32,000 bases of DNA from contig CP169074.1 in assembly GCA_041891055.1 (NCBI GenBank), positions 857,620-889,619 on the forward strand. Direction: 5' to 3'. How positions within the stretch are numbered: position 1 is the stretch's first letter; every line of letters starts with the position of its first letter. A program made the translations under genes and the position numbers. This DNA comes from Halorutilales archaeon Cl-col2-1 (GTDB lineage Archaea; Halobacteriota; Halobacteria; Halobacteriales; Afararchaeaceae). Under the pieces are notes generated by a model. The model had not been told where the DNA came from and made no database searches. It saw only the letters and a list, made by a program, of their open reading frames with translations. Positions 510-29,723 of this stretch are shown here, piece by piece.

Positions 510-1997
510 ATGCTCGTACTCGGAACCTCGTCACACGTCGGAAAGAGCACCGTAGTCGCGGGGCTATGCCGTCTCCTCTCCGACGAAGGGTACGAAGTCG
601 CACCGTTCAAGGCTCAGAACATGAGCAATAACTCATGGGTGACCTCCGAAGGCGGTGAGATAGGAATATCACAGGCTGTACAGGCGTGGGCGGCGCGTAA
701 GGAGCCATCCGTCGAGATGAACCCCGTCCTCCTCAAGCCGAAGGGCGACGGTGTCTCGCAGGTAGTACTCCTCGGAGACGTACATGGCGACAGGGAGACG
801 GGAGAGTACTACGACGAGTTCGACGAGATGAGACGCCACGCGAAAGAGGCGTACGAGAGACTCGCAGACGAGAACGACGTCGTAGTCGCCGAGGGTGCGG
901 GGGGAGCGGCGGAGATCAACCTACAAGACCGTGACCTCTCGAACACAGAGACTGCGCGGTTCGCCGACTCGCCAGTAGTACTCGTCGCCGACATAGAGAG
1001 GGGAGGTGTCTTCGCGAGCGTCTATGGAACTCTCGAACTCCTCCCCAACGACATACGTGAGAACGTCAAGGGTGTGATCATCAACAAGTTCAGGGGATCG
1101 CTCGACGTCCTGGAGCCGGGACTCGAAGAGCTCGAAGACCTAACGGGAGTCCGAGTCTTAGGCGTCCTGCCCTACACCGACCTCGGCCTCCCCTCCGAGG
1201 ACTCGTTGTCGATAGACGACAAGCCGGCGTCGGAGGACAGATACGATGACGGAGAAGCCGAAGTAGCCGTCGTGCGTCTTCCACGTATCTCGAACTTCAC
1301 CGACTTCGAGCCTCTTGAACGCGAGGAGCGGGTCAAGGTCAGATACGTCGATCTTGCCGACTCTCTCGGAGATCCCGACGCCGTCATTATCCCCGGCACT
1401 AAGAACACAGTCGACGACCTCGTGAGCCTGAAGGAGACTAACCTCTTCAATGAGATTAGATCGTACGACGGCGTCGTCGTCGGTGTGTGTGGAGGGTTCC
1501 AGATGCTCGGCGAGTGGGTAGTAGACGAGGGCAACGAGTCGGTTGACGACGAGACACAGAGGATAGAGGGTCTCGGACTTGTCCCGGTCAGAACACGGTT
1601 CGACTCGTCGGAGAGTGGATACGCCGATGACAGACGGAAGACGACCCGACAGGTCGAGCTAAGAGCCACAGGAGACGGGCTCCTCTCGGATTTCGAGGGC
1701 ACCGTAGAGGGCTACGAAATACATATGGGGGAGACGGACGAGGTCGGAGAGTCTCCGGGACTTGAATCCGCCTTCGGACATGACGGTGTCGTGACAGACC
1801 GTGTCCTCGGAACGTACCTCCACGGTCTCTTCTCGAACGACGGCTTCCGTGACGCCTTCGTAGACGCCATAGGTGGCTGTTCCGAGTCCTCAAGCTCTCC
1901 TGACTCCGATCCCTACGACGATGCGGCACGTCTTCTGAGGGAGAATATTGATACACAGGCTATCATAAAGATGGCTGAGTCGGAGAAAGCAGAATAG
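510..1997 (+). CDS. cobQ: Cobyric acid synthase (CobQ/CbiP)
   Basis: The N-terminus LGTSSHVGKSTVVAGLCRLLSDEGYEVAPFKAQNMSNNSWVT...GEIGISQAVQAWAA...MNPVLLKPKGD matches the CobQ ATP-binding/DTBS-like domain. The C-terminal part has a glutamine amidotransferase signature (GVCGGFQMLG ... GYEIHMG ... GTYLHG). Confidence 0.9.
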   Translation: MLVLGTSSHVGKSTVVAGLCRLLSDEGYEVAPFKAQNMSNNSWVTSEGGEIGISQAVQAWAARKEPSVEMNPVLLKPKGDGVSQVVLLGDVHGDRETGEYYDEFDEMRRHAKEAYERLADENDVVVAEGAGGAAEINLQDRDLSNTETARFADSPVVLVADIERGGVFASVYGTLELLPNDIRENVKGVIINKFRGSLDVLEPGLEELEDLTGVRVLGVLPYTDLGLPSEDSLSIDDKPASEDRYDDGEAEVAVVRLPRISNFTDFEPLEREERVKVRYVDLADSLGDPDAVIIPGTKNTVDDLVSLKETNLFNEIRSYDGVVVGVCGGFQMLGEWVVDEGNESVDDETQRIEGLGLVPVRTRFDSSESGYADDRRKTTRQVELRATGDGLLSDFEGTVEGYEIHMGETDEVGESPGLESAFGHDGVVTDRVLGTYLHGLFSNDGFRDAFVDAIGGCSESSSSPDSDPYDDAARLLRENIDTQAIIKMAESEKAE

Positions 1998-2835: not shown

Positions 2836-4014
2836 CTACGACCGAGCCATCTTCTTGAGACGTTTCTCGCCCGACCGCGTGCCTCTCGCTATCACTGTGT
2901 CGTCGGCTTCGAGACGTGTCTCAGCGTAGGGATTGTATATCCAGCCCTCTTCCCGTCTCACAGCCATGACGTGCATACCCGTCTTGGTCTCCAGGTTGAG
3001 GCTACCAAGCGTCTCGGAGTCGAGCTTACTACCCCCCTCAACCTGAACCTGGGCAATTATCTCGTTGCTCTCCCTCACAGCCTCAGAGAAGACGGGATGT
3101 AGATCGATGTCACGCATAGTGACGTCAGCCATCTCAAGAGCCGCATCGGAGATGACCTCCGACGAGATAGCGAGATGTATGAGACCTCTCAGGTTCGAGG
3201 GGTTCTCGACCTGACACGCCGACTCGAGAACCCAGTCCTCTAAGTCCTGCATGAGGTCGTCCGACTCCGATTCGAGAACCTGAACCTGGCTAGCTATCCT
3301 CTCACTCTCAAAGAGAGTGGCGCTGTAAGCGAGACCCACTGAGAGCTCTGCCTTATTCTTCATCTCGATTATCGCCTTGACCGCCTTATCGAGATCCTCT
3401 ATCGCGCTTGCGACTGCACCTTCGTACGACTTCTCCTCTCCGGTCAGCAGGAGATGAACGTCTCTCAGACCCTCCTCGGGACCCTCACAGAAGACGACGT
3501 CGTTCTTGAGGACACGTGTCTCCTTCTGTGGAGCGAATATCCAGTCGTTGTCACGTTTTATAGCGAAGACGTGAACCCCTGTCTGTGTTTCGAGGTCAGT
3601 CTCCCCGAGCGACTTTCCCGCGATATCGGAGCCCTCGTCGACACACACACGCATCACCGACTCCTTAGCCTCAGGGAGAGCACCCCTCAGCGACTCGGGG
3701 AGACCCATCTCTCTGAGAAGAACTTCGGCTATGTCCTCGGCGGCGTTCGATATCTTCTCGGCGGCTCCTACGATCTGGAAGATTCCGACGAGCTTCTCGG
3801 CGTCATCTGAGCTTCGCGCGGCGAGCATCAGAGCGATACGGGCGTGGTACTGGAGAAAGTTCATCCTATCTTCGAGTTCGAGAACCTCCTGTGCTATCTC
3901 ACGGTTCTTGAACAGAACCGCGGTGTAGGCGAGGTCGACCATGAGCTCGGAGGTGTCCTTCATCTCCGTGAGTATCTCCTTGACGTTACGTGGCTCGTAC
4001 TCTATGCCGCGCAT
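2836..4014 (-). CDS. Duplicated PhoU-like/TrkA-C domain regulatory protein (COG3273-type), the usual partner of MgtE-like permeases
   Basis: Two tandem halves each pair a helical PhoU-like segment with a TrkA-C-like beta domain. The beta domains read GKSLGETDLETQTGVHVFAIKRDNDWIFAPQKETRVLKNDVVF and LDSETLGSLNLETKTGMHVMAVRREEGWIYNPYAETRLEADDTVIARG. MgtE-like permease genes lie nearby. Confidence 0.75.
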   Translation of the reverse strand: MRGIEYEPRNVKEILTEMKDTSELMVDLAYTAVLFKNREIAQEVLELEDRMNFLQYHARIALMLAARSSDDAEKLVGIFQIVGAAEKISNAAEDIAEVLLREMGLPESLRGALPEAKESVMRVCVDEGSDIAGKSLGETDLETQTGVHVFAIKRDNDWIFAPQKETRVLKNDVVFCEGPEEGLRDVHLLLTGEEKSYEGAVASAIEDLDKAVKAIIEMKNKAELSVGLAYSATLFESERIASQVQVLESESDDLMQDLEDWVLESACQVENPSNLRGLIHLAISSEVISDAALEMADVTMRDIDLHPVFSEAVRESNEIIAQVQVEGGSKLDSETLGSLNLETKTGMHVMAVRREEGWIYNPYAETRLEADDTVIARGTRSGEKRLKKMARS

Positions 4015-4833: not shown

Positions 4834-5424
4834 ATGGATCAGACGCGCGAGATATTAGAGAGAAGCGCGGAGATCTACAAAGAAGCAGTTCCTGTTCTCC
4901 TGGTCAGCCTCGTCGGTGGTCTCTTCGCGGGTGTTTTTCTCGGAGGGAGCGGCATGAGATCGGCGATGGAGTCGATCCCGGGTCTTCTCGTAATGGTACC
5001 CGCTATGCTCGCTACGAGGGGCAATGTCTACGGCTCTCTCGGGGCTCGTATCTCGACGGGTCTCCATCAGGGTCTCGTAGAGCCGAGGTTCGAGTACGAC
5101 GAGAGGCTGGCTAACGCCGTGACGGCTTCTGTGGTAAACGGCATATCGATTTCAGTTCTGATAGGTGTCGCGTCGTGGCTACTCCTGCCTCTCCTCGGAA
5201 GACAGCCCGCACCTCTCACGAGTCTCGTCGGGATATCCGTCGTGGCTGCTGTTCTTAGTGGTGTCACACTCACATTCTTCCTCTTGGTCGTCCTCTTCGT
5301 GGGATACAGACGCGGACTCGATCCCGACCTCCTCATAGGACCCATAGTAACGACATCGGGAGACGTATTCGGGGTCATCTATCTCTACATAGGCGTCGTG
5401 ATAGTCGACGGAGGCTTTCTGTAA
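4834..5424 (+). CDS. MgtE-like divalent cation transporter membrane domain protein (COG1824-type), subunit 1
   Basis: LATRGNVYGSLGARISTGLHQG and IGPIVTTSGDVFGVIYL match the MgtE/SLC41 permease-domain motifs. About 5 TM helices are present. Confidence 0.8.
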   Translation: MDQTREILERSAEIYKEAVPVLLVSLVGGLFAGVFLGGSGMRSAMESIPGLLVMVPAMLATRGNVYGSLGARISTGLHQGLVEPRFEYDERLANAVTASVVNGISISVLIGVASWLLLPLLGRQPAPLTSLVGISVVAAVLSGVTLTFFLLVVLFVGYRRGLDPDLLIGPIVTTSGDVFGVIYLYIGVVIVDGGFL

Positions 5425-5987
5425 TGTCAGTCGACTCGTCATGGAATTTAAGGAGGCTCGTGGCTTCGACCTTTCCGCTCCTCGTAGTTCTGTCGGCTCT
5501 CGAAATGGGATCAGGTGTGATACTCGAAGGTCTCCGAGACTCCTATCTCAACAACCCGTCTCTCCTCGTCCTTGTTCCCGTAATGATAGGCATGGGAGGT
5601 AACCTCGGCTCTATGCTGTCGTCACGTCTCTCGACGAGGCTCCATCTCGGAACCACGAGACTCGATCCACGCGACCCGGTGGTGGCGTCGAATATAGTCG
5701 CCGTCTTCGGTCTAGCCCTGACAGTCTTCGTTCTACTCGGATTCTCGACGTACGGCTTGGGAAGAACCGTCATACAAGGGAGTCTGAGCCTCGCCACGGT
5801 TCTGACTGTCTCGGTCTTGAGTGGAACCGTACTCGCGTCCGTGGTAGTAGTGGTGAGCCTCGTGGCGACGTATCTGGCTTACGTTACCGGAGTCGATCCC
5901 GACGATGTCGTCATACCCGTAGTGACTAACGTCTGTGATATACTCGGCGTAGTGATACTCACCGCCGTGGTAATCTTAGTCGTTTAG
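5424..5987 (+). CDS. MgtE-like divalent cation transporter membrane domain protein, subunit 2
   Basis: GMGGNLGSMLSSRLSTRLHLG and VIPVVTNVCDILGVVIL match MgtE permease-domain motifs. The start overlaps the upstream stop (TAATG), indicating translational coupling with subunit 1. Confidence 0.8.
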   Translation: MSVDSSWNLRRLVASTFPLLVVLSALEMGSGVILEGLRDSYLNNPSLLVLVPVMIGMGGNLGSMLSSRLSTRLHLGTTRLDPRDPVVASNIVAVFGLALTVFVLLGFSTYGLGRTVIQGSLSLATVLTVSVLSGTVLASVVVVVSLVATYLAYVTGVDPDDVVIPVVTNVCDILGVVILTAVVILVV

Positions 5988-6908: not shown

Positions 6909-7169
6909 ATGTCTGCGACAGAGATTACCAAGGACGAGGCAGATGAGATAGACGCTGACATGGAAATAGACGTGACAGGTGAGGTCTGTCCGTATCCTCA
7001 GCTTGAGGCGAAGAAGGCTATGAAGAAGCTGTCGTCGGGAGAGACCTTCGTAGAGGTCACCGACCACGTCGACTCAGTTGAGAACGTACCCGAGGTCATC
7101 GGTGCCGACGGCGATGTCAAGTACTGGGACGACGACGGCACGTTCCATCTCTACGTCACTAAGGCATAG
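6909..7169 (+). CDS. tusA: TusA/YeeD-type sulfur carrier protein with canonical CPxP cysteine
   Basis: IDVTGEVCPYPQLEAKKAMKKLSSGETFVEVTDH matches the TusA/SirA motif (G-x-x-CPxP...K.al..l..Ge.l.v..D). The 86-aa size fits, and it lies directly upstream of a YeeE/YedE gene. Confidence 0.85.
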   Translation: MSATEITKDEADEIDADMEIDVTGEVCPYPQLEAKKAMKKLSSGETFVEVTDHVDSVENVPEVIGADGDVKYWDDDGTFHLYVTKA

Positions 7170-7225: not shown

Positions 7226-8461
7226 ATGGCAATAGGATTAGGGGGACTCGTACTTTCGGTAGTCGTGGGTACAGCTATAGGGATATTCATGCAGAAGGGA
7301 AGGTTCTGCTTCGTGCACGCCTTGAGAGATTTTATCGCATTCAAGGACACACGTGTCACGAAGGGGGTCGTCTCGGCGATAGGCGTCACTATGCTCCTCT
7401 GGGCAGGGGTCGCTACGGCTCTTGGAGGCGCAAACTGGTGGACGTCGTCTCTTTCGCTCTTCGGGATTGTGGGAGGCATAATCTTCGGCGTCTCTATGAC
7501 CTACGCCGGGGGCTGTGCGAGCGGTACGCTCTACCGTGCGGGAGAGGGATATGTCCAGTTCTGGATAACACTCGTCTTCATGGGTGTCGGTTACATCGTT
7601 TACAGCGCCCTGTTTCCGACACTCTCTCCGGTCAAGTCGTCGCTAACGTTCTCCGAGGGATTCTCGCTCTTCGAGATGGGTCTCCCGCCGATAGTCATGG
7701 GAGTGATAGGAGCCGGAGTGATCGTCGTGGCTTACGTCGTCCTCGTCGGAAGAGAAGTCACCGAATCAGGAGGCGGTGTCTCTGGTGCTGAGTCGGCACA
7801 GGCAAACATGGGAGTCTTCGGCGCGGGCTGGAACAGCTTCAGCCAAGGTACTAAGTCGTACATATCGGGCTTCTTCAACTCCGAGAAGAGCTTCGGAGAG
7901 AGAATGAAGGAGCCGTGGAGCGCCAAGACAGCGGGTATAGGAATCGGATTTGTTAGCATACCGTGGTTCGTCTACCTCAACACGATAGACGGCTACGCGG
8001 GATCGTACATAGCGATGACAGGTCCCGAGGTCGGCTGGCTAGCACTCATACTCAACCCGATAGTTGACCTCCAGAACGTCTCGCTCACAGGACCTTTCGG
8101 CTACATCGCGGCTTTCTACCAGAACAACCTCTCGATGGGAGCGTCTAACGCAGTGGTTCCGGGTGCAATAGCACCACCGATGCTCCTAGTCGCGTCGCTC
8201 GTCTTCGGCGCGTTCTTAGCGTCGCTCTGGAGCGGCGAGTTCGACGTAAGGATGCCCAAGAAGAAACGCGTACCGAACGCCGTCCTAGGCGGTCTCGGAA
8301 TGGGAGTGGGTTCAAGAATGATACCCGGCTGTAACATAGCCAACATCTACTCAGGACTCTCGATGCTCACGATGAACGCCGTGATAGGTACGGTCGGTAT
8401 GATAATTGGAGTCTACATAATGACCCACTGGATGTACAGAGATATAGGCTGTGAGCTTTAG
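7226..8461 (+). CDS. yeeE: YeeE/YedE family sulfur-compound (thiosulfate-type) transporter, all three conserved Cys present
   Basis: It is polytopic, with the three family cysteine motifs KGRFCFVHAL, GGCASGTLYR and IPGCNIANIY. It pairs with the TusA-like gene upstream. Confidence 0.85.
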   Translation: MAIGLGGLVLSVVVGTAIGIFMQKGRFCFVHALRDFIAFKDTRVTKGVVSAIGVTMLLWAGVATALGGANWWTSSLSLFGIVGGIIFGVSMTYAGGCASGTLYRAGEGYVQFWITLVFMGVGYIVYSALFPTLSPVKSSLTFSEGFSLFEMGLPPIVMGVIGAGVIVVAYVVLVGREVTESGGGVSGAESAQANMGVFGAGWNSFSQGTKSYISGFFNSEKSFGERMKEPWSAKTAGIGIGFVSIPWFVYLNTIDGYAGSYIAMTGPEVGWLALILNPIVDLQNVSLTGPFGYIAAFYQNNLSMGASNAVVPGAIAPPMLLVASLVFGAFLASLWSGEFDVRMPKKKRVPNAVLGGLGMGVGSRMIPGCNIANIYSGLSMLTMNAVIGTVGMIIGVYIMTHWMYRDIGCEL

Positions 8462-9756
8462 AAGTTAGCCGTCACAGAGAAGACAGAGCCGTTCTGGTTA
8501 CCCAGGTATATCCTTTCTCCGACGACTGCGGGCGAAGACCTCATGCCGTAACGCGTATTATGGCTCCAGACCTCTGAGGCATCTTCTCTCGAAATCACGT
8601 AGACGTTTCCGTCTGAGCTTCCGAAACACAGCCTGTCCTTTGTAACCGCGGGGGACGTCCTGACCTCGCTTCCCTCACCGTAGCTCCAGATCTCCTCGCC
8701 CGACTCGGCGTCGACTGCGTAGACGTTTCCATCGTTACTTCCGAAGTAGACAGTCGCATCGGCTAACGCCGGCGAAGAATGTATCTCGTCGCCCGTCTCG
8801 AAGCTCCATAGCTCGGAGCCATCGTCCTTACTCAGCGCGTAAAGGCTACCGTCGGTACTTCCTATGTAGACGGCGTCGTCTCCGAGAGTAGGTGCTGCCT
8901 CTATCTCGTAGCTCTTACCCCATCTCATACTTCCGTCCGTAGTGAACGAAATTACCTGACCGATGTCGCTTGCGGTGTAGACACCCGACTCGTCGACCGC
9001 GGGCGAGACGCGGACTGCGTACTGCTGGTTGCTGTTCCAGGCTTCCTCACCCGACTCGGCGTCGACTGCGTATACACGTCCGTCTGTGCTCCCTATATAG
9101 ACGGTACCGTCGTAGACAGCAGGGGCGGTGTGTATCTCGTCACGTGTCGAGAACTCCCACTCAGGAGTGCCGTTGGAACTGTCGATAGCGTAGAGGTCGC
9201 CTCCGACTGTTCCGACGTAGAGATGATCGCCGTCGTCGCTGACAGCGGGCGAACCCCTCACAGGGTCGCCGAGGCTGACGCTCCAGACCTCGTTTCCTAT
9301 CGTGGCACTGTAACCGTAGACTGTGCCGTCAGTTCCGCCTATGTAGAGTACTGAGTCGTCGACAACTGGCGATCCGAAGACCTCATTTCCTACTGAGACA
9401 GACCAGTCCTCGTCGGGGAACTTAGGAGGTATCTGTGTCGCGGGGTTGTACCCTGAGTTCGACGAGTTCTTCTGGAACGACAGCCATCTGTCCTCGACGT
9501 CGGGAGCCTCCTGAGCCGCGTCGTCGGTCTCAGACTCGTTCTCCGCCTCCTGCATCTCTGTCTCATTCTGATCCGTGTCAGTCACATTCTCGACAGGCTG
9601 TGTCTCGTTCTGGTTCGTGTCAGTCTGGTTCTGAGGCTGTGAGTCGTTCGTCCCATCTCCGTCCCCACCGCCACCCGTACATCCCGCTATACCCGCTATT
9701 CCGACAGAAGTAGCCTTCAGAAACCATCTGCGCGTTCGCTGAGTTCCGTCCGACAT
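8458..9756 (-). CDS. Tat lipoprotein with PQQ-like (BamB-like) beta-propeller repeats
   Basis: The signal is TRRWFLKATSVGIAGIAGC. An acidic T/N/Q/E-rich linker carries several N-x-T/S sequons. About 8 repeats of the pattern V(Y/F)xGSxDGxxYAxDAxxGEExW...SPA follow. Confidence 0.8.
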   Translation of the reverse strand: MSDGTQRTRRWFLKATSVGIAGIAGCTGGGGDGDGTNDSQPQNQTDTNQNETQPVENVTDTDQNETEMQEAENESETDDAAQEAPDVEDRWLSFQKNSSNSGYNPATQIPPKFPDEDWSVSVGNEVFGSPVVDDSVLYIGGTDGTVYGYSATIGNEVWSVSLGDPVRGSPAVSDDGDHLYVGTVGGDLYAIDSSNGTPEWEFSTRDEIHTAPAVYDGTVYIGSTDGRVYAVDAESGEEAWNSNQQYAVRVSPAVDESGVYTASDIGQVISFTTDGSMRWGKSYEIEAAPTLGDDAVYIGSTDGSLYALSKDDGSELWSFETGDEIHSSPALADATVYFGSNDGNVYAVDAESGEEIWSYGEGSEVRTSPAVTKDRLCFGSSDGNVYVISREDASEVWSHNTRYGMRSSPAVVGERIYLGNQNGSVFSVTANF

Positions 9757-11391: not shown

Positions 11392-11706
11392 TCATCTAAG
11401 GAGACCAAAGAAAAAGAGTACTAAGACGAGTAGGTTGAGTATATGTGTGACTCCGACCGTAGTACGGTAGGGGAAGTTGATCATGACACCAAACATGAAT
11501 GATATCTCCTTCATGAAGAATAGACCGAACCCCACGAAGAGAAACATGAAACGTCTGTTCCTCCTCTTGTAGTAGGCGAGAGCGGCGACCACGAAGATAC
11601 CCGCGGCGAGTATAAGGGTGGCTATATGTATCGCCGAGTCGAGCTGAGTCCCCTCTATGCGTGGAGGCTGCATATGGATCAGGGGCTCATACGCCGTCTC
11701 TAACAT
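11392..11706 (-). CDS. Small 3-TM membrane protein
   Basis: Three hydrophobic helices are present, with a basic loop YYKRRNRR after TM1. It resembles the 108-aa protein at 14051-14377 in size and architecture. Confidence 0.5.
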   Translation of the reverse strand: MLETAYEPLIHMQPPRIEGTQLDSAIHIATLILAAGIFVVAALAYYKRRNRRFMFLFVGFGLFFMKEISFMFGVMINFPYRTTVGVTHILNLLVLVLFFFGLLR

Positions 11707-11749: not shown

Positions 11750-12301
11750 CTACTCTTCGGCTTCCTGGTCTTCGAGTATCCTGTCTATCTGAGAGGTCAT
11801 CTCATTAGCCGAGACGAAGCTTCCGTACTTCTCGTACCTTATCCTTCCCTCTCCGTCGACTATAACGATTCCCGGAGGAGAATGTGTCTGGTACTTTCTC
11901 AGGAATACCTCCGAGCCGGTGTCGGAGAGGTAGGTCATCTCTATGTCGTGTTTCTGCTTCCAGTTTCTGAGTGTCTCCTTGCTCTCGGGTGATATGGCGA
12001 CGAAATGGACGTCGTCGCCTGGGTATCTCTCCTCCATCATCTCCTTCCACGTGGGTATCATCTCGCCACATGTTAGACACGTCGTAGTCATCAGATCGAT
12101 CACGACGACATCGCCCTCGTAGTCGGAGAGCGAGACCGTCTCGCCCTCGACTGACTCAAGCGTGAAACCCGGAGCTGGCTTTGCCTCGGCGGCTGTCTTC
12201 ACGTTGCTATTAAACGCGCCCATCACGCTCAGACCCGCGAGGGCAACTACGAGGACTAAGATAGTCCCCACGACCGCCGTTACGACACTCTTGTCTGACA
12301 T
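11750..12301 (-). CDS. Membrane-anchored thioredoxin-fold thiol:disulfide oxidoreductase (TlpA/ResA/redoxin-like)
   Basis: An N-terminal TM anchor is followed by FTLESVEGETVSLSDYEGDVVVIDLMTTTCLTCGEMIP. This has a CxxC in the position and context of TlpA-family proteins, and a cis-Pro region SPPGIVIVD. Confidence 0.75.
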   Translation of the reverse strand: MSDKSVVTAVVGTILVLVVALAGLSVMGAFNSNVKTAAEAKPAPGFTLESVEGETVSLSDYEGDVVVIDLMTTTCLTCGEMIPTWKEMMEERYPGDDVHFVAISPESKETLRNWKQKHDIEMTYLSDTGSEVFLRKYQTHSPPGIVIVDGEGRIRYEKYGSFVSANEMTSQIDRILEDQEAEE

Positions 12302-12320
12302 CTATTTTTGTTCTTATGTA

Positions 12321-13589
12321 TCACATCAGCATTCTCTTGACCTTGAAACCGGCGTACATCCCCGGGAATATTCCGACTGCGTAGACGAGCCCGACGAGGT
12401 TCGCCTGTGTCGAGATCGCCGTGAGGAATCCCGCACAGTCACACGCGAGTGCGAGACGGACTCCGAGAGCTATGCCGAATCCTCCGAGTATCGAGAGAGC
12501 GTAACGGTTGAGCTTCTTGCCCTTCGGAGGTGTACGTATCTTGAAGTCCTGGTACCACACAGCGGCGAGGAACGCACCGAGTATCGCGACTATGTAAGCC
12601 CACGTACCTATCGCGAGTCCGGGAAGTGCCTTCGTTCCAGCCCACCACCACTCTCCGGGGAACCACTGAGGTACTGTAAATCCGAAGACAGGCCAGACGA
12701 AGTAGCTCGCTATGAAGCCGAGAGGTCCGGCTCCACGGAACATACCGGGGAGTGCGTCGGCACCCCATATCTGGTACGACACGAAGAAGATAGTGTTAGC
12801 GAAGACTGCGATGGTTCCCGCTACTCTGGGATCCCAGAGTCTCTCGGGTGTCGCGAAAGCCTTCTTGAAAGCCGACGAAAGGCTCGCGGCGTCACTCTTG
12901 ACAACTCTTCCTCCGTCGGCGACCTTCTTCTTGACCTCGTTCATCTGGGGCATTCCGCCCTCAGGCGAGTAGTTCTTCGCGAGGTAGTACGATATAGCCG
13001 CGAAGGCTATGGATGCTACGACACCGTAGACGAGAACGCCGAGCTTGACTCCCAGAATTGGCTCACCGGGTCCTTTGAGAGTCAGTAGAGGCGTCGACCA
13101 GGGCCAGCCGAATCCTCCGAATTCCCTGTTGAAACTCACCGCCGGCCTGGCTACGAACGGAACCATCACGACCCAAGCTACGAATATAGCGAAGGTCTGT
13201 AAAACGGCTGAGACACGTCCCTCACCTATCTTGTGGACTAGACTAACCGCTGACGCTCCTCCTAGCGCCGATCCGAAACCGAGTATGAACGACCCTATGA
13301 AGGCTAGGGGTCCTGAAGGCTTCGTGGGCGGCATCTTTCCCGTGAAGAACGTGATTATTCCAACCGAGAGAATTCCGATTCCGAAGAAGTACATGAACCC
13401 TCTCGCTAGCCAGCCGTTGCGCTGGTAGACGAGGTCTCCAAACATCTGAACCGGGTCGAACTGTCCTCTCTGAAGCGCTATTCCGAATATGAGTCCGGCT
13501 ACACCCACAACTCCGTAGACGACTGTGTTAGGACTCGTCGGCTCCATGAAACTGTACTCAGCTAGAAGTACTGATAATGCCCCTATCAT
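12321..13589 (-). CDS. Divergent YeeE/YedE family transporter paralog lacking two of the three family cysteines
   Basis: It aligns by eye with the 7226-8461 protein across all three motif regions. GIALQRGQFDPVQMF corresponds to GIFMQKGRFCFVHAL. LGGASAVSLVHKIGEG corresponds to AGGCASGTLYRAGEG. GVRLALACDCAGFL corresponds to GSRMIPGCNIANIY. The segment WYQDFKIRTPPKGKK parallels WSGEFDVRMPKKKR. Confidence 0.8.
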   Translation of the reverse strand: MIGALSVLLAEYSFMEPTSPNTVVYGVVGVAGLIFGIALQRGQFDPVQMFGDLVYQRNGWLARGFMYFFGIGILSVGIITFFTGKMPPTKPSGPLAFIGSFILGFGSALGGASAVSLVHKIGEGRVSAVLQTFAIFVAWVVMVPFVARPAVSFNREFGGFGWPWSTPLLTLKGPGEPILGVKLGVLVYGVVASIAFAAISYYLAKNYSPEGGMPQMNEVKKKVADGGRVVKSDAASLSSAFKKAFATPERLWDPRVAGTIAVFANTIFFVSYQIWGADALPGMFRGAGPLGFIASYFVWPVFGFTVPQWFPGEWWWAGTKALPGLAIGTWAYIVAILGAFLAAVWYQDFKIRTPPKGKKLNRYALSILGGFGIALGVRLALACDCAGFLTAISTQANLVGLVYAVGIFPGMYAGFKVKRMLM

Positions 13590-13591
13590 TG

Positions 13592-13819
13592 TTATGTGTG
13601 TATCTCGAAGAAGTAGTCTGCTCCCTTCTTCTCGACCTCGTAGTCGTATCCTTCCTGCTTGCAGAGCGTAGGTATGTTCACTTCACCTATACTCGGCATA
13701 TCCGTCACGAACTCGACTGTCTCACCACTACTAGCTTCTTCGAGTCCCTCCTCTGCCATCCAGAGAGGGATAGGGTACTCCTCCCCCCTTGCGTCAACTC
13801 GTTTCATCTGTTTGCTCAT
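13592..13819 (-). CDS. TusA/YeeD-like small protein with the CPxP cysteine replaced (YPIP)
   Basis: VDARGEEYPIPLWMAEEGLEEASSGETVEFVTD aligns with the TusA motif, but Tyr (codon 13775-13777) occupies the catalytic Cys position. A 2-nt gap separates it from the downstream YeeE paralog. Confidence 0.7.
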   Translation of the reverse strand: MSKQMKRVDARGEEYPIPLWMAEEGLEEASSGETVEFVTDMPSIGEVNIPTLCKQEGYDYEVEKKGADYFFEIHT

Positions 13820-14050: not shown

Positions 14051-14377
14051 GTGGCGCTAGTTCCGCCCGTGCTCGGAATACGTGTCTGTATGATAATCTC
14101 GTCTCTCAACATAGCCCTGCTCACGGGTCTAGCGACAGTATACGGCAGGAATTACAGGCGTATGAAGTCGGCATTCAGCCTCGGTCTCTTGATCTTCTCT
14201 CTCCTATTCGTACTTGAAAACAGCCTCGCAGTCTACTACTACGTCACACAGCAGATAGTGACGTGGAAGCCACACATAGTCCTAGCCACCTCGGAGTTCG
14301 TGGGCTTCTCAGTTCTTGGTCTGATAACCTGGAAGCCAGACCTCTCGTTCAGTCTGAGAGTCCCGAGAATAAGATGA
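14051..14377 (+). CDS. Small 3-TM membrane protein
   Basis: Three hydrophobic helices with a basic loop GRNYRRMK after TM1. The listed start is GTG; an in-frame ATG at 14090 is an alternative start. Confidence 0.45.
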   Translation: MALVPPVLGIRVCMIISSLNIALLTGLATVYGRNYRRMKSAFSLGLLIFSLLFVLENSLAVYYYVTQQIVTWKPHIVLATSEFVGFSVLGLITWKPDLSFSLRVPRIR

Positions 14378-14452: not shown

Positions 14453-14710
14453 ATGGAAAGAGCAAAACAGAAGATAGGAGCTTTAGTTATTGTAGCTCTC
14501 ATAATTGGGGGAATAGGTACACAGATATGGGCAGGTACCGACAAGAACGTCGTAAACGCGGGTTTCTCAGAAGGAGAGGAGAGAAACATACCCACTAACG
14601 AGAGCGGTGATTCTTCGTCGGGATCGTCGTCGAGTATAGGTACTGACGCTGACGTACCCGATGGTGCCGTAGTGTCGTCGTCGAGCGGTGGGGCGTCACC
14701 GACAGGTTAG
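14453..14710 (+). CDS. Small N-terminally anchored or secreted Ser/Gly-rich protein
   Basis: The N-terminal hydrophobic helix IGALVIVALIIGGIG is followed by a low-complexity acidic S/G-rich tail. It lies between the 3-TM gene and ccdA on the same strand. Confidence 0.4.
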   Translation: MERAKQKIGALVIVALIIGGIGTQIWAGTDKNVVNAGFSEGEERNIPTNESGDSSSGSSSSIGTDADVPDGAVVSSSSGGASPTG

Positions 14711-14751: not shown

Positions 14752-15414
14752 ATGGAACTCGAACTTCTGGTATTTGCGGCTACTGCGGGGACAGCCACCT
14801 TCTTCTCGCCGTGTGGCTTCCCGATGCTCGCGGTCTATGCCTCGTACTACCTCCAGGAGGAGGACGAGGGAATAGGCTACTCCCGCGGCTTTGTAGCCGG
14901 AGGAGCGACAGCCGTCGGCTATCTTGGTGTCTTCTTAGCCCTCGGCGGACTCGTCTACGCGGTCGGAAACGCCGTGACACCACATATTCCGAAGCTGGAG
15001 CTGTTCGTCGGAAGCCTCCTCATGGTCTTCGGTGTTCTGATACTCACAGGAAGATCACCGTCGTTTTCGAGCGAGGTCTACATTCCCGAGAGAGGCGGCT
15101 TGACGGGATTCTTCGTCTTTGGTGTCCTCTACGCAGTCGCAGCGTCGGCATGTGTAATACCCGTCTTCGTGAGTCTGATCACCTACGCGGCTTCACAGGG
15201 CAGTCTCGTCTCGACACTGACCGTCTTCGGTGTCTACGCCGCTTCGATGGGTGCGATGATGATCGTAATCTCACTCGCGATAGCCGGTGGAAAGGAGATA
15301 TTCGTCGACAAGATAAAGTCCCATATAGGACTGATAGAGAAGGGCGCGGGAGTCGTAATGGTAGTCGTAGGAGCCTACCAGATAGGCTACTACATCACCA
15401 ACTTTGTTCTCTGA
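14752..15414 (+). CDS. ccdA: CcdA/DsbD-family transmembrane thiol:disulfide electron transporter
   Basis: A six-TM-type protein with the two family cysteine motifs in TM helices: FFSPCGFPML (PCxxP) and ASACVIPVF (CxxP). Confidence 0.8.
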   Translation: MELELLVFAATAGTATFFSPCGFPMLAVYASYYLQEEDEGIGYSRGFVAGGATAVGYLGVFLALGGLVYAVGNAVTPHIPKLELFVGSLLMVFGVLILTGRSPSFSSEVYIPERGGLTGFFVFGVLYAVAASACVIPVFVSLITYAASQGSLVSTLTVFGVYAASMGAMMIVISLAIAGGKEIFVDKIKSHIGLIEKGAGVVMVVVGAYQIGYYITNFVL

Positions 15415-22852: not shown

Positions 22853-23341
22853 ATGGACAGAAGAGACTTCCTGAAGGCTGCGGGAGCGACATCGATAGCT
22901 GGACTCGCCGGCTGTACAGGCGGCGGGGGCGGAGGAAACGGCGGAGATACCGGCGGTGACGGTGGAGGCGACACCGGCGGAAACGGCGGAGACTCAGGTG
23001 GAGACAGCGGAGGAGACTCGGGTGGAGACTCCGGCGGAAACGGCGGAGGCGGAACCACGGGACTCCCCGAAGGTGTCTCTCAGGAACAGTTCGACACTGG
23101 TCCCGTCCCCGACGCCTACTCGACCGCAACCTCACAGGGTGGTACCGCCAGAAACCCCGACGTCCTCCAGGCAAAGAGTGGCGTCAGCTACCAGTCAGAG
23201 CCGAGTTCGGGTGACCAGTGTGATGGCTGTGTCCAGTACGTACCCGACCAGAACGACGACGGCTACGGCGCATGTGCTCTCGTAGAGGGCTACATCCATC
23301 CCCAGGGATGGTGCTCGCTCTACGCTGCGTACCAGGGCTAG
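22853..23341 (+). CDS. Tat-exported, lipobox-bearing high-potential iron-sulfur protein (HiPIP)
   Basis: The signal is MDRRDFLKAAGATSIAGLAGC (twin-Arg plus lipobox), followed by a GGDxGG linker. The C-terminus DQCDGCVQYVPDQNDDGYGACALVEGYIHPQGWCSLYAAY has the four-Cys HiPIP pattern C-x2-C-x(n)-C-x(n)-GWC-x-x-(Y/W). Compare Halorhodospira-type ...CENCAFW...GRC...EGWCSVYA. Confidence 0.8.
   Translation: MDRRDFLKAAGATSIAGLAGCTGGGGGGNGGDTGGDGGGDTGGNGGDSGGDSGGDSGGDSGGNGGGGTTGLPEGVSQEQFDTGPVPDAYSTATSQGGTARNPDVLQAKSGVSYQSEPSSGDQCDGCVQYVPDQNDDGYGACALVEGYIHPQGWCSLYAAYQG
22919..23053 (+). repeat. Coding low-complexity repeat (GGD[ST]GG/GGNGG units) forming the HiPIP lipoprotein linker
   Basis: It translates to GGGGGGNGGDTGGDGGGDTGGNGGDSGGDSGGDSGGDSGGNGGGG. 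The four consecutive DS units use different Ser codons (tca, agc, tcg, tcc), so the DNA repeat is imperfect. Confidence 0.8.
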
Positions 23342-27236: not shown

Positions 27237-29723
27237 ATGTCCAGAGTCCTCTGGTTCGACGAGATAGGATCGGGTGACACGGCGTCAGTCGGAGGGAAAA
27301 GTGCTAACTTAGGTGTCCTCGCAAACGAGGTCGACGTCCCCGTTCTCCCGGGATTTGCGACCACCGCCGAAGCCTACGACGACTACATAAGACACAACGA
27401 CCTAGACGACGAGATACGTGAGACTCTCTCGGGGATCGACACCCACGACACAGCCGACCTCCGGAGACGTGGCAGTAAGATACGTTCACTCATACTCGGT
27501 GGCGAGATGCCGGACGACCTCCGCGACGAGATAGCCGAGTCTTACTCCGAGCTCAGCGACCGTCTCGGGGTCGAGAACCCCGGCGTAGCCGTGCGTTCAT
27601 CTGCGACCGCGGAGGATCTCCCGGGGGCTTCTTTCGCGGGACAGCAGGAGACCTTTCTCAACATCTCGGGGGAGGAAGAAGTAGTCGAGAGCGTCAAGGG
27701 ATGTTACGCCTCCCTCTTCACTGACAGGGCTATCTCGTACAGGGAGGACAAGGGATTCGACCATCTCGAAGTCAAGCTCTCAGCCGCTGTCCAGAAGATG
27801 GGGAACGCAGGTGAGGGGGTCTCGGGAGTGACCTTCACGATAGACCCCGACACGGGTTTCGAGAACGCCCTCGTCATAAACGCGAGCTACGGCTTCGGCG
27901 ACCTCGTCGTACAGGGGGAGATCAACCCCGACGAGTTCACAGTCTTCAAGCAGAACCTCGGTATTATAGAGAGAAGGCTCGGCGACAAGCAGGAGAAGCT
28001 CGTTAGACGCGAGGGAGAAAACGTCAGTGTCGAAGTGCCAGACGAAGACTCGGGGTCTTTCTGTGTCTCCGACGAACGGGTCAGAGAGGTAGCAGAGTAC
28101 GGAATGCGTGTCGGGGAGCATTACGGCAGACCCATGGACGTCGAATGGATACTCGACGGGGACACCGACGAGGTTTTCGTGATACAGGCGAGACCCGAGA
28201 CTGTCGAGTCGGAACGTGACCCGAACGTAGTAGAGAAGTACCGTCTCAGGGACGAGTCGGAGGTCTTGTCGAGAGGCAGCGCGGTAGGGTCGAGGATAGG
28301 TGCGGGAGTCGCACGCGTCTTAGAGTCGCCGGAAGAGATCGACGAGTTCGGTGAAGACGAGGTTCTGGTTACTTCGAGAACAGACCCCGACTGGGAGCCC
28401 ATAATGAAGAAAGCCGCGGCGATAGTCACAGACAAGGGCGGAAGGACGTCCCACGCCGCGATAGTCTCGCGCGAACTCGGTATTCCGGCTGTGATAGGAA
28501 CCGACGACGGTACTTCTGTGATAGAGACGGGCGACGAGGTCACAGTCGACGCCTCGGAGTCGGAGGGAAAGGTCTGGTCGGGGATTCTCGACTTCGAGGT
28601 CGAGACACACAGACTCGACGAGATTCCGGAGACAGATACTGAGGTTCTCGTCAACATAGGTGTGCCGTCTAAGGCGTTCGAGGTCGCACAGCTTCCCGTA
28701 GACGGAGTGGGTCTCGCACGTGAGGAGTTCATAATCTCGTCGGAGGTCGGCGTACATCCTCTCAAGCTGATGGAGGAGGGAAGAGAGGACGAGTACGTCG
28801 AGTCTCTCAGGTCGGGAGTCGGGAAGATAGGAGCGGCGTTCTACCCCGACGACGTCGTACTCCGTCTCAGCGACTTCAAGTCGGACGAGTACGCCGAGCT
28901 CAGAGGAGGAGACGAGTACGAGACCGAGGAGTCGAACCCGATGCTCGGATTCAGGGGGGCGGCGCGTTACTACGACGACGAGTTCTCGGCGGCGTTCGAA
29001 CTCGAATGTAGAGCCATAAGGAAGGCGATAGACAGCCTCGGACTCGACAACCTCAAGGTGATGGTGCCGTTCTGCCGAACCGTCGAGGAGGGCGAGAGGG
29101 TACGTGAGAAGATGAAGGAGTACGGTCTCGACGAGGGCGACATGGATATCTACGTCATGGCTGAGGTTCCGTCGAATGTCGTCGCCGCCGACGGCTTCGC
29201 GCAGAACTTCGACGGCTTCTCTGTCGGAACCAACGACCTGACACAGCTTACACTCGGTGTCGACAGGAACAGCGACAGGCTCTCGGAACTCTTCGACGAG
29301 AGGGACGTCGCTGTCAAGAGATCGGTGAGATCGCTCGTAGAGAAGGCGAAGATACTGGGTCTCCACACCGGAATCTGTGGCGACGCTCCGAGCACACACG
29401 AAGGATACGCTGAGTTTCTCGTCGAGACGGGTATAGACTCGGTCTCAGTCTCGTCGGACGTCGCCCTCGAAACTATACTACGTGTCGCGGAGGCGGAGGG
29501 AGAGATGGACGGAACGGTAGAGTCAGATATAGATATGGTCGGCTGTGTGAGGGAAGTCATCGAAGTCCTCGGAGAGGAAAAGGCCACGTCAGAAGAGCTG
29601 AGTCAGAAGACGGGGATGGATACAGAGGACGTCTCTCAGGCACTCGGCTGGCTCCTCAACGAGAACTGGGTCGAAGTCGAAAAAGGACACAGAAAGAAGG
29701 AATACAGCCTGTGTCTCTACTGA
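27237..29723 (+). CDS. ppsA: Phosphoenolpyruvate synthase (pyruvate, water dikinase) with a C-terminal extension of about 75 aa
   Basis: The N-terminal ATP-grasp start is VLWFDEIGSGDTASVGGKSANLG. The phosphohistidine swivel motif is GGRTSHAAIVSRELGIPAV. PEP-utilizer C-terminal motifs are SVGTNDLTQLTLGVDR and ICGDAPS. Confidence 0.92.
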   Translation: MSRVLWFDEIGSGDTASVGGKSANLGVLANEVDVPVLPGFATTAEAYDDYIRHNDLDDEIRETLSGIDTHDTADLRRRGSKIRSLILGGEMPDDLRDEIAESYSELSDRLGVENPGVAVRSSATAEDLPGASFAGQQETFLNISGEEEVVESVKGCYASLFTDRAISYREDKGFDHLEVKLSAAVQKMGNAGEGVSGVTFTIDPDTGFENALVINASYGFGDLVVQGEINPDEFTVFKQNLGIIERRLGDKQEKLVRREGENVSVEVPDEDSGSFCVSDERVREVAEYGMRVGEHYGRPMDVEWILDGDTDEVFVIQARPETVESERDPNVVEKYRLRDESEVLSRGSAVGSRIGAGVARVLESPEEIDEFGEDEVLVTSRTDPDWEPIMKKAAAIVTDKGGRTSHAAIVSRELGIPAVIGTDDGTSVIETGDEVTVDASESEGKVWSGILDFEVETHRLDEIPETDTEVLVNIGVPSKAFEVAQLPVDGVGLAREEFIISSEVGVHPLKLMEEGREDEYVESLRSGVGKIGAAFYPDDVVLRLSDFKSDEYAELRGGDEYETEESNPMLGFRGAARYYDDEFSAAFELECRAIRKAIDSLGLDNLKVMVPFCRTVEEGERVREKMKEYGLDEGDMDIYVMAEVPSNVVAADGFAQNFDGFSVGTNDLTQLTLGVDRNSDRLSELFDERDVAVKRSVRSLVEKAKILGLHTGICGDAPSTHEGYAEFLVETGIDSVSVSSDVALETILRVAEAEGEMDGTVESDIDMVGCVREVIEVLGEEKATSEELSQKTGMDTEDVSQALGWLLNENWVEVEKGHRKKEYSLCLY

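Follow-up and report, generated by a model that had tools for sequence, protein, structure and literature searches.

Can a YeeE-like transporter and its TusA-like partner still work, and if so by what means, once the cysteines that define their family have been replaced? The question is raised by the gene pair tusA2-yeeE2, which lies in a stretch of 32,000 nucleotides from the Halorutilales archaeon Cl-col2-1 (GenBank assembly GCA_041891055.1, contig CP169074.1, positions 857,620 to 889,619 of the forward strand). This whole stretch is called the window below, and positions are counted from its first nucleotide. The window encodes two pairs of a small TusA-family protein and a YeeE-like membrane protein:

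6909-7169, plus strand: tusA1, a canonical Cys-type TusA/YeeD-like carrier with the motif GEVCPYP (PF01206, 54.6 bits)
7226-8461, plus strand: yeeE1, a canonical three-Cys YeeE-like transporter (PF04143, 163.7 bits)
12321-13589, minus strand: yeeE2, a 422-amino-acid membrane protein of the YeeE/YedE fold (PF04143)
13592-13819, minus strand: tusA2, a 75-amino-acid protein of the TusA/YeeD fold with the motif RGEEYPIP (PF01206)

The canonical pair sits 4 kb from tusA2-yeeE2 and served as the internal comparison: the codon of Cys27 in tusA1 is at 6987-6989, and the cysteines of the yeeE1 product, which was also aligned to the solved structure 6leo, are C28, C97, and C369 in the motifs GRFCFV, GGCASG, and PGCNIA. 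The tusA2/yeeE2 junction reads TAA-CA-ATG, leaving a 2-nucleotide spacer between the two genes. In the Pfam scan tusA2 scored 45.8 bits against PF01206 (gathering cut-off 28.6), and yeeE2 scored 64 bits against PF04143 (Sulf_transp, cut-off 27) and covered profile positions 1-309 of 310. A first-pass annotation, made from the letters of the sequence, had called the same open reading frames (ORFs), the same spacing, and the same canonical motifs, all of which are borne out by the coordinates and translations. In its deposited record yeeE2 is called "YeeE/YedE thiosulfate transporter family protein" and tusA2 "sulfurtransferase TusA family protein". A 308-amino-acid ORF antisense to yeeE2 (window 12162-13088, plus strand) lacks support and can almost certainly be put down to the GC-rich coding strand as a shadow ORF.

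In the characterized systems four cysteines stand in line, from C293 at the outer side through C91 in the centre to C22 at the cytoplasmic mouth of the transporter, and then C17 of the carrier YeeD (PMC7449682, PMC11073785). In the canonical scheme these cysteines, together with R20, R28, and R98, pass thiosulfate inward, and YeeD C17 captures it covalently. C17 is the catalytic residue of YeeD and is also required for binding, and R28 and R98 have been proposed to steer thiosulfate toward it (PMC11073785). In Escherichia coli YeeE (EcYeeE) serine cannot replace any of the three cysteines (PMC7449682), and in SoxT1B each single Cys-to-Ser change abolishes function (PMC11582611). In the Spirochaeta thermophila protein (StYeeE) C91A and C293A are inactive, while C22A still complements (PMC7449682).

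We aligned a profile of the YeeE2 clade (described below) with the solved StYeeE structures (6leo, 8j4c). The cytoplasmic C22 site is occupied by D45 (codon 13455-13457), the central C91 site by S113 (codon 13251-13253), and the outer C293 site by C383 (codon 12441-12443). Of the three cysteines that characterize TsuA/YeeE (St C22, C91, C293), YeeE2 retains the third alone. It contains only two cysteines in total, C383 and C385, so no realignment could restore three; C385, the later Cys of ACDCAG, is not shared by orthologues, which have ACDVAG or ACDIAG at this place. The arginines of the relay have changed as well. In the alignment StYeeE R20, C22, R28, C91, and R98 correspond to Q43, D45, G51, S113, and K120, respectively. 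Conservation was counted in about 95 of the nearest full-length relatives aligned to the clade profile: Cys is present at site 1 in 88/93, at site 2 in 94/95, and at site 3 in 52/53 of them, and Arg at the R28 site, near position III, in 75/94, where G51 is invariant in the clade. The departures from strongly conserved family residues that are invariant in the clade are C45D, A49M, R51G, C113S, G374A, G382A, N384D, and S397N; R43Q, G116S, and R120K are near-miss clade-specific positions. The substitutions at the Cys sites occur in 5/5 clade members and are not due to chance.

The AlphaFold2 (AF2) model of YeeE2 (predicted local distance difference test score, pLDDT, 80.9; predicted template-modelling score, pTM, 0.83) has 6leo, 8j4c, and 8k1r as its best Foldseek matches, with probability 1.0 and a target-normalised template-modelling (TM) score of 0.77 to 6leo. 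It reproduces the hourglass fold of nine transmembrane helices and four re-entrant loop/short-helix elements, the latter at residues 43-56, 111-122, 280-302, and 381-394. In this model D45, S113, and C383 are each the final loop residue before a short helix (46-56, 114-122, and 384-394) and are thus predicted to sit at the tips of re-entrant loops, like the cysteines of StYeeE (PMC7449682). The LC loop reads LPGMFRGAGP and carries an invariant arginine, R285 (codon 12735-12737), where relatives have G[IV]T; R285 lies in the same loop as StYeeE R215, although its register against St R215 and T222 is uncertain. Against the NCBIfam TsuA models YeeE2 stays far below the cut-offs (NF052577, 47.7 versus 400 bits; NF041049, 21.4 versus 645). 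The by-eye alignment of the first-pass annotation is upheld by this profile and fold comparison: it had correctly placed Asp at site 1 (GQFDPV) and the retained Cys at site 3 (ACDCAG), and one reading has to be amended, the Ala that it had assigned to site 2 (GGASAV) being Ser.

The carrier has changed in the same manner. In TusA2 the catalytic Cys of the CPxP motif is replaced by Tyr15 (motif Y15-P-I-P, codon 13775-13777), as the first-pass annotation had it (GEEYPIP). In the TusA2-clade profile Tyr15 takes the place that the catalytic Cys has in E. coli YedF (1je3), TM0983, TusA, and StYeeD (C17), and it is invariant across the clade. The protein is not free of cysteine as the first-pass annotation had implied: the catalytic Cys is gone, but one clade-invariant Cys remains, C53 in NIPxLC (codon 13661-13663), which in the same profile aligns with C56, the second cysteine of E. 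coli TusA, a residue that we take to be non-catalytic. The AF2 model of TusA2 is confident (pLDDT 91.2), with a Foldseek TM score of 0.84 to E. coli TusA (3lvj_C) and a root-mean-square deviation of 1.1-1.2 Å at 30% identity to the YeeD part of 8k1r. Helix alpha1 is acidic in every Tyr-type partner (AEEGLEE, AEEKLEE, AEENLKE), whereas the helix that follows the motif is basic in canonical carriers (RKKLQ, QKKLKK, KKAMKK). Halophilic acidification was considered as the source of these residues and rejected, since the same acidic alpha1 is found in the Tyr-type carriers of Hydrothermarchaeota-like homologues, which we presume not to be halophiles.

The docking surface has been treated differently from the relay. 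R21, R101, E104, E271, and R275 are the docking residues needed for function in EcYeeE (PMC11073785), and their equivalents in YeeE2 are R41, K120, E123, D348, and R352, three of them identical and two conservative. On the carrier side seven residues of StYeeD affect binding: E15, D42, and E48 are kept in TusA2 as E13, D40, and E46, while V16 has become E14, C17 has become Y15, Y43 has become M41, and R49 has become V47. The docking scaffold is therefore retained, and the cytoplasmic thiol/arginine relay and the carrier nucleophile are replaced by carboxylate and hydroxyl groups.

How widespread is such a pair? A k-mer search of 5.8 billion clusters matched three, namely the cluster of the window protein itself (98% identical representative) and two at 53% identity. 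HMMER, run exhaustively against 1.84 billion representatives clustered at 50% identity, returned one cluster below 1e-30, and the next match scored 94 bits. Pattern scans with the clade alignment over GTDB species representatives and Joint Genome Institute (JGI) metagenomes gave no further members, so the clade consists of five sequences, at the following loci: the window; L003, from a Halobacteria metagenome-assembled genome (MAG) whose protein is 98% identical in amino acid sequence to that of the window; L004/L005, from a Halobacteria MAG with 94% identity; and two Logan contigs, L001 and L002, whose proteins are 80% identical to each other and 54-58% to the window protein. Gene order in L003 and in L004/L005 is the same as in the window. 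The clade spans two distant archaeal lineages, Halorutilales (three strains) and a Hydrothermarchaeota-like lineage (two contigs), because the AMP phosphorylase gene of L001 is nearest to those of Hydrothermarchaeota-type MAGs (77% and 69%) and L002 carries C/D box small RNA (sRNA) families of Thermococcales type (Rfam). The sRNA in L002 (1385-1439, plus strand) matches the Pyrococcus-type Rfam families sR41 and sR3 and fits a euryarchaeal (Thermococci/Hydrothermarchaeota-like) origin of the contig.

In all five loci a TusA-family gene directly precedes the transporter gene and reads RGE[ED]YP[IY]P. A profile search with the Tyr-type carriers found only themselves and then canonical RGEVCPYP proteins at no more than 47 bits. 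In a neighbour-joining tree the variant YeeE2 proteins form a long monophyletic branch, sister to P0005, P0006, P0009, and P0010, which pair with Cys-type TusA proteins; the check proposed by the first-pass annotation, whether Cys-depleted transporters form a clade that always pairs with Cys-less TusA-like proteins, came out positive in this clade, with a Tyr-type TusA in 5/5 loci. YeeE1 (P0085 in the tree) belongs to a different branch. We also considered the second pair as a recent duplicate of the first and rejected this, given the separate branches and the 22% identity of the two transporters.

The pairing rule holds for the YeeE2 clade alone. P0082, an unrelated YeeE-like protein encoded on a high-GC bacterial contig (L022, 831-2054), has lost Cys at all three sites (motifs RAELSFV, ARGSLMV, and TGLGTVTG) and has no TusA gene alongside; Cys loss in the family has therefore occurred at least twice, with different partners. 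In four other relatives the site-1 Cys alone is missing and sites 2 and 3 are kept (P0024, Ser; P0090 and P0114, Gly; P0150, Asp), and these losses fit the experiments in which site 1 is the most dispensable. On the carrier side, L002 encodes a second TusA-family ORF (1442-1687, minus strand; PF01206) without the CPxP Cys (...NMQGYSGTYLK...), which is not beside a YeeE-like gene.

Both genes are under purifying selection in both lineages. The ratio of nonsynonymous to synonymous substitution rates (dN/dS), calculated by the method of Nei and Gojobori, is 0.08-0.10 for yeeE2 within Halorutilales and 0.11 for L001 versus L002; for tusA2 it is about 0.10 within Halorutilales and 0.09 for L001 versus L002. 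Canonical yeeE1 and tusA1 gave 0.098 and 0.064, and neighbouring genes 0.05-0.15. No frameshifts or stops were seen in tusA2 or yeeE2 across the five assemblies. Pseudogenisation is rejected by these ratios, and sequencing error by the identity of the substitutions in five independent assemblies. The first-pass annotation had judged the pair functional rather than decayed and had named dN/dS on orthologues as the check; the result agrees with that judgement, and its own label "co-degenerate" is the wrong word for what is a concerted remodelling with the docking residues kept.

Taken together, we consider it reasonably probable that tusA2-yeeE2 is a working membrane protein with a cytoplasmic partner that docks in the canonical manner, and that the conduction line of the pair, in its cytoplasmic half, has been rebuilt to do without thiols. 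The pair would descend from a canonical YeeE/TusA (TsuA/TsuB-like) pair. Its conduction line would keep the outer C383 and would continue through S113 at the centre and D45-P46 at the cytoplasmic mouth to Y15 of the carrier; two relay arginines are gone (Q43, G51), and the outer loop has A-C-D instead of G-C-N. Such a pair could neither form a persulfide or thiosulfonate on the canonical residue of its carrier nor run an S-H-S relay through the centre and the cytoplasmic mouth, and the ligand would therefore be moved or sensed non-covalently via hydroxyl and carboxylate groups, with TusA2 acting as a docking cap or receptor, not as a sulfurtransferase. The lost arginines and the added carboxylates speak against the passage of a dianion, thiosulfate for example, along the canonical route, and the ligand is probably not thiosulfate taken up in that way. 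We thus infer, as the first-pass annotation did, a changed substrate or a non-covalent mechanism.

The neighbouring genes differ between the two lineages. In the window the pair is flanked by the following:

11392-11706, minus strand: a DUF7471-like small membrane protein, 3' of the redoxin gene (weak Pfam match of 23.3 bits, below the cut-off of 27)
11750-12301, minus strand: a ResA/TlpA-like membrane-anchored thiol-disulfide oxidoreductase with CxxC (Pfam AhpC-TSA and Redoxin; best NCBIfam models ResA and TlpA)
14051-14377, plus strand: a DUF8036 membrane protein, divergent from tusA2, in Halorutilales loci only
14453-14710, plus strand: a small single-pass membrane protein with N-x-[AG]-F-S-E-G-E just past its helix (the FSEGE protein), with no Pfam family
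14752-15414, plus strand: a CcdA/DsbD-type transmembrane thiol-disulfide electron conduit (PF02683 DsbD_TM, 28.7 bits)

The redoxin gene starts 19 nucleotides downstream of yeeE2 on the same strand, in an order shared by L003, L004, and L005, and is probably in one operon with tusA2-yeeE2, in the Halorutilales loci only. The CcdA-type gene is syntenic in L004 and L005, again in Halorutilales loci only, and its product could keep the extracytoplasmic redoxin reduced. The DUF7471-like gene is syntenic in L003 and L004, and whether its product belongs to the system is uncertain; the DUF8036 assignment comes from precomputed PF26119 matches in L004/L005, and our own Pfam scan gave no match. In L001 and L002 a TauE-family gene and a divergent LysR gene precede the pair, the LysR gene lying immediately upstream. 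L001 also encodes a ModA/sulfate-type solute-binding protein, and its LysR proteins best match the selenium-associated LysR model NF040786 at 152-163 bits, well above the next model and below the cut-off of 250. The sole accessory gene common to both lineages is that of the FSEGE protein, whose relatives are at L001 9256-9471, L002 about 9254-9472, and L004 4039-4308 (minus strand), immediately 3' of the yeeE2-like gene in L001 and L002 (BLASTP E=7e-5). Its tail is variable and of low complexity, and the gene is absent from the sister canonical loci. On account of this position in L001 and L002 the FSEGE protein is a candidate third component, and it may sit on the outer face as a subunit. No sox or shdr genes were found in the window or the related loci, and an Rfam scan near the pair in the window, L001, and L002 gave no riboswitch or other RNA element. 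A scan for sigma-70 promoters and terminators returned 3 and 4 sites against shuffled means of 2.3 and 2.3, the sigma-70 model being inapplicable to archaea.

The retained outer Cys, the redoxin with CcdA, and TauE with LysR together keep a sulfur/selenium flavour. With low confidence, our preferred guess at the substrate is a small solute related to sulfur or selenium and either free of sulfane sulfur or protonated, for example bisulfite or hydrogen selenite, because of the sulfur and selenium flavour of the neighbours (TauE, a LysR that best matches the selenium-associated subfamily, ResA/CcdA). A fuller proposal, which we put forward tentatively and rate somewhat below an even chance, is that the YeeE fold now serves a system which does without thiols and has up to three components: YeeE2, a Tyr-type TusA cap with no catalytic function, and a small FSEGE membrane subunit. 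This system would conduct a ligand other than thiosulfate, for example a protonated sulfur or selenium oxyanion or even a cation, and its docking interface, though preserved, would have swapped charges that insulate it against the canonical pair of the same cell.

Several points weigh against these interpretations. StYeeE C22A complements, so the loss of site 1 alone is not decisive. The clade is small, with five sequences from two lineages. The placement of D45, S113, R285, and C383 along one pore would follow from homology and from their loop-tip positions in the secondary structure of the model. The charge inversion of alpha1 speaks against an anionic ligand reaching TusA2, and alternatively it could reflect charges exchanged at the interface, by which the two paralogous pairs would be insulated against one another. 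Redoxin and CcdA occur in the Halorutilales loci only and LysR and TauE in the Hydrothermarchaeota-like loci only, leaving FSEGE alone as shared.

Other explanations have to be set against this. If the substrate were unchanged, thiosulfate or sulfane sulfur would still be imported, with the outer Cys and the LC-loop Arg recognizing it, the rest of the protein acting as a passive channel, TusA2 as a gate, and other cytoplasmic enzymes processing the sulfur. The invariance of C383, and of R285 in the loop where StYeeE has R215, agrees with such import, as do the complementing StYeeE C22A (PMC7449682) and the sulfur-flavoured context of TauE, LysR, the ResA/TlpA-like redoxin, and CcdA, which recalls the thioredoxin and the small membrane protein beside soxT1A (PMC11582611). 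We nevertheless regard it as unlikely: the central Cys is essential in all three tested systems and Ser is no substitute for it in EcYeeE and SoxT1B, relay R28 is now Gly and an Asp has been added at the cytoplasmic mouth, YeeD C17 is required for catalysis and binding, and a canonical pair is already present in the same genome. The remodelled charges may also be taken further. Carboxylates gained in concert (at D45, D384, the GE[ED]Y loop, and the acidic alpha1), together with the loss of arginines, could have converted an anion path into one for cations, for instance for a thiophilic or borderline metal that binds first at the outer Cys, which is kept and would be held reduced by the redoxin and the CcdA-like protein adjacent in Halorutilales. 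This idea is improbable in our view. No metal-handling genes (chaperone, P-type ATPase, or metal regulator) were seen near any locus, basic residues remain or are new (R41, K120, R125, R285, R352), and the alpha1 inversion can be explained by the insulation of paralogous interfaces. The model also puts the key residues at the N-terminal ends of short helices; helix N-termini favour anions, and Asp or Ser there may merely be N-caps.

A role in signalling would relieve the pair of transport altogether, in that it would signal the presence of a compound outside the cell to a regulator, for example the divergent LysR of the Hydrothermarchaeota-like loci, as has been proposed for SoxT1B and SoxR. 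L001 and L002 do have a LysR-type gene that is divergent from the pair and directly upstream of it, and there is a signalling precedent for a YeeE-like protein (PMC11582611). No regulator adjoins the pair in the Halorutilales loci, however; the signalling proposed for SoxT1B needs all three cysteines (PMC11582611), and divergent LysR genes usually regulate merely the adjoining operon, so that we give a sensor only a small chance of being correct. Finally, the residues that are essential in characterized homologues are gone, as would be expected of a duplicated pair decaying after the loss of its catalytic residues. This is effectively refuted by a dN/dS of about 0.1, equal to that of the canonical pair and the housekeeping neighbours. 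Intact frames in five assemblies from two distant lineages, with long invariant motifs at an inter-lineage identity of 53-57%, the tight 2-nucleotide spacing, and two confident, well-folded AF2 models likewise speak against a relic.

Should the fuller proposal of a thiol-independent system hold true, no natural YeeE/TusA system before tusA2-yeeE2 would have been shown to function in the absence of a cysteine relay, and no TusA-family protein before TusA2 to have only a structural or gating task at a transporter. The current models of YeeE/TsuA, SoxT, PmpAB, and the TusA partners all rest on conserved cysteines, and this natural variant offers a ready-made test that separates the transport and docking parts of the fold from the sulfur chemistry; the canonical pair in the same genome is a built-in control for a side-by-side comparison. 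The annotation of the two genes is also affected: TusA2 is unlikely to be a canonical sulfurtransferase because its catalytic cysteine is missing, and YeeE2 is unlikely to import thiosulfate by the known route. With five sequences in two archaeal lineages, its rarity limits the general importance of the system.

Some further observations were made in the window and in L004. An IS605 OrfB/TnpB-like gene (L004, 9111-11033) lies between the two YeeE/TusA pairs of that locus, and the PQQ beta-propeller gene beside it is called at 181 amino acids as against 432 for its counterpart in the window (8458-9756), a difference that points to a truncation associated with the insertion. In the window the plus strand encodes two adjacent short MgtE-domain proteins (4834-5424 and 5424-5987), apparently a split divalent-cation transporter with the same split in L004, and a PhoU/TrkA_C regulatory protein is encoded nearby (2836-4014, minus strand). 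Farther along are a protein with a twin-arginine signal and a high-potential iron-sulfur protein (HiPIP) domain (22853-23341, plus strand), unexpected in a haloarchaeon, and a PEP-utilising enzyme of the pyruvate, water/phosphate dikinase type with a C-terminal DUF2582 winged-helix domain (27237-29723, plus strand).

How does the pair compare with known systems? No curated model separates the YeeE2/TusA2 clade, and the searchable literature describes no Cys-less YeeE/TusA pair, in keeping with the statement of the first-pass annotation that it knew of no characterized subfamily of this kind. The putative selenium transport pair YedE/YedF (FdhT/FdhU) is similar in that YedE/FdhT and YedF are the best NCBIfam models of YeeE2 and TusA2, and E. 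coli YedF (1je3) is the best PDB sequence match of the TusA2 clade; the scores, however, are far below the cut-offs (NF033796, 52.3 versus 350; NF008242, 27.9 versus 79), and YedE and YedF keep their cysteines (PMC5322559). SoxT1A/SoxT1B of Hyphomicrobium denitrificans also have a thioredoxin-like extracytoplasmic protein and a small single-pass membrane protein nearby, as the Halorutilales locus has redoxin, CcdA, and FSEGE, but SoxT has three cysteines, each of them essential, and is found within sox/shdr clusters (PMC11582611). The nearest relatives are the sister clade of P0005, P0006, P0009, and P0010 (94-70 bits), with the same tusA-yeeE gene order and a TusA that shares the IPxxC second cysteine with TusA2; unlike the variant pair, they keep all three transporter cysteines and the TusA CPxP motif (TGEICPYP, RGETCPFP, LGETCPIP) and have no FSEGE gene. 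One of their loci, L020, is a dsrEFH-tusA-yeeE cluster.

A further comparison is with the thiosulfate uptake system TsuA/TsuB (YeeE/YeeD of E. coli and Spirochaeta thermophila; 6LEO, 8J4C, 8K1R). There too a TusA-like gene lies directly before or beside the YeeE-like gene. The variant pair matches this system in its predicted folds, has retained the outer Cys, and has kept or conservatively replaced the docking residues. It differs in that only one of the four aligned cysteines is left, Ser standing for C91, Asp for C22, and Tyr for YeeD C17, and St R20 and R28 have become Gln and Gly. YeeE2 further has ACD for GCN in the LD loop, FRG for G[IV]T in the LC loop, and a central insert of about 80 residues, and helix alpha1 of TusA2 is acidic where that of TsuB is basic.

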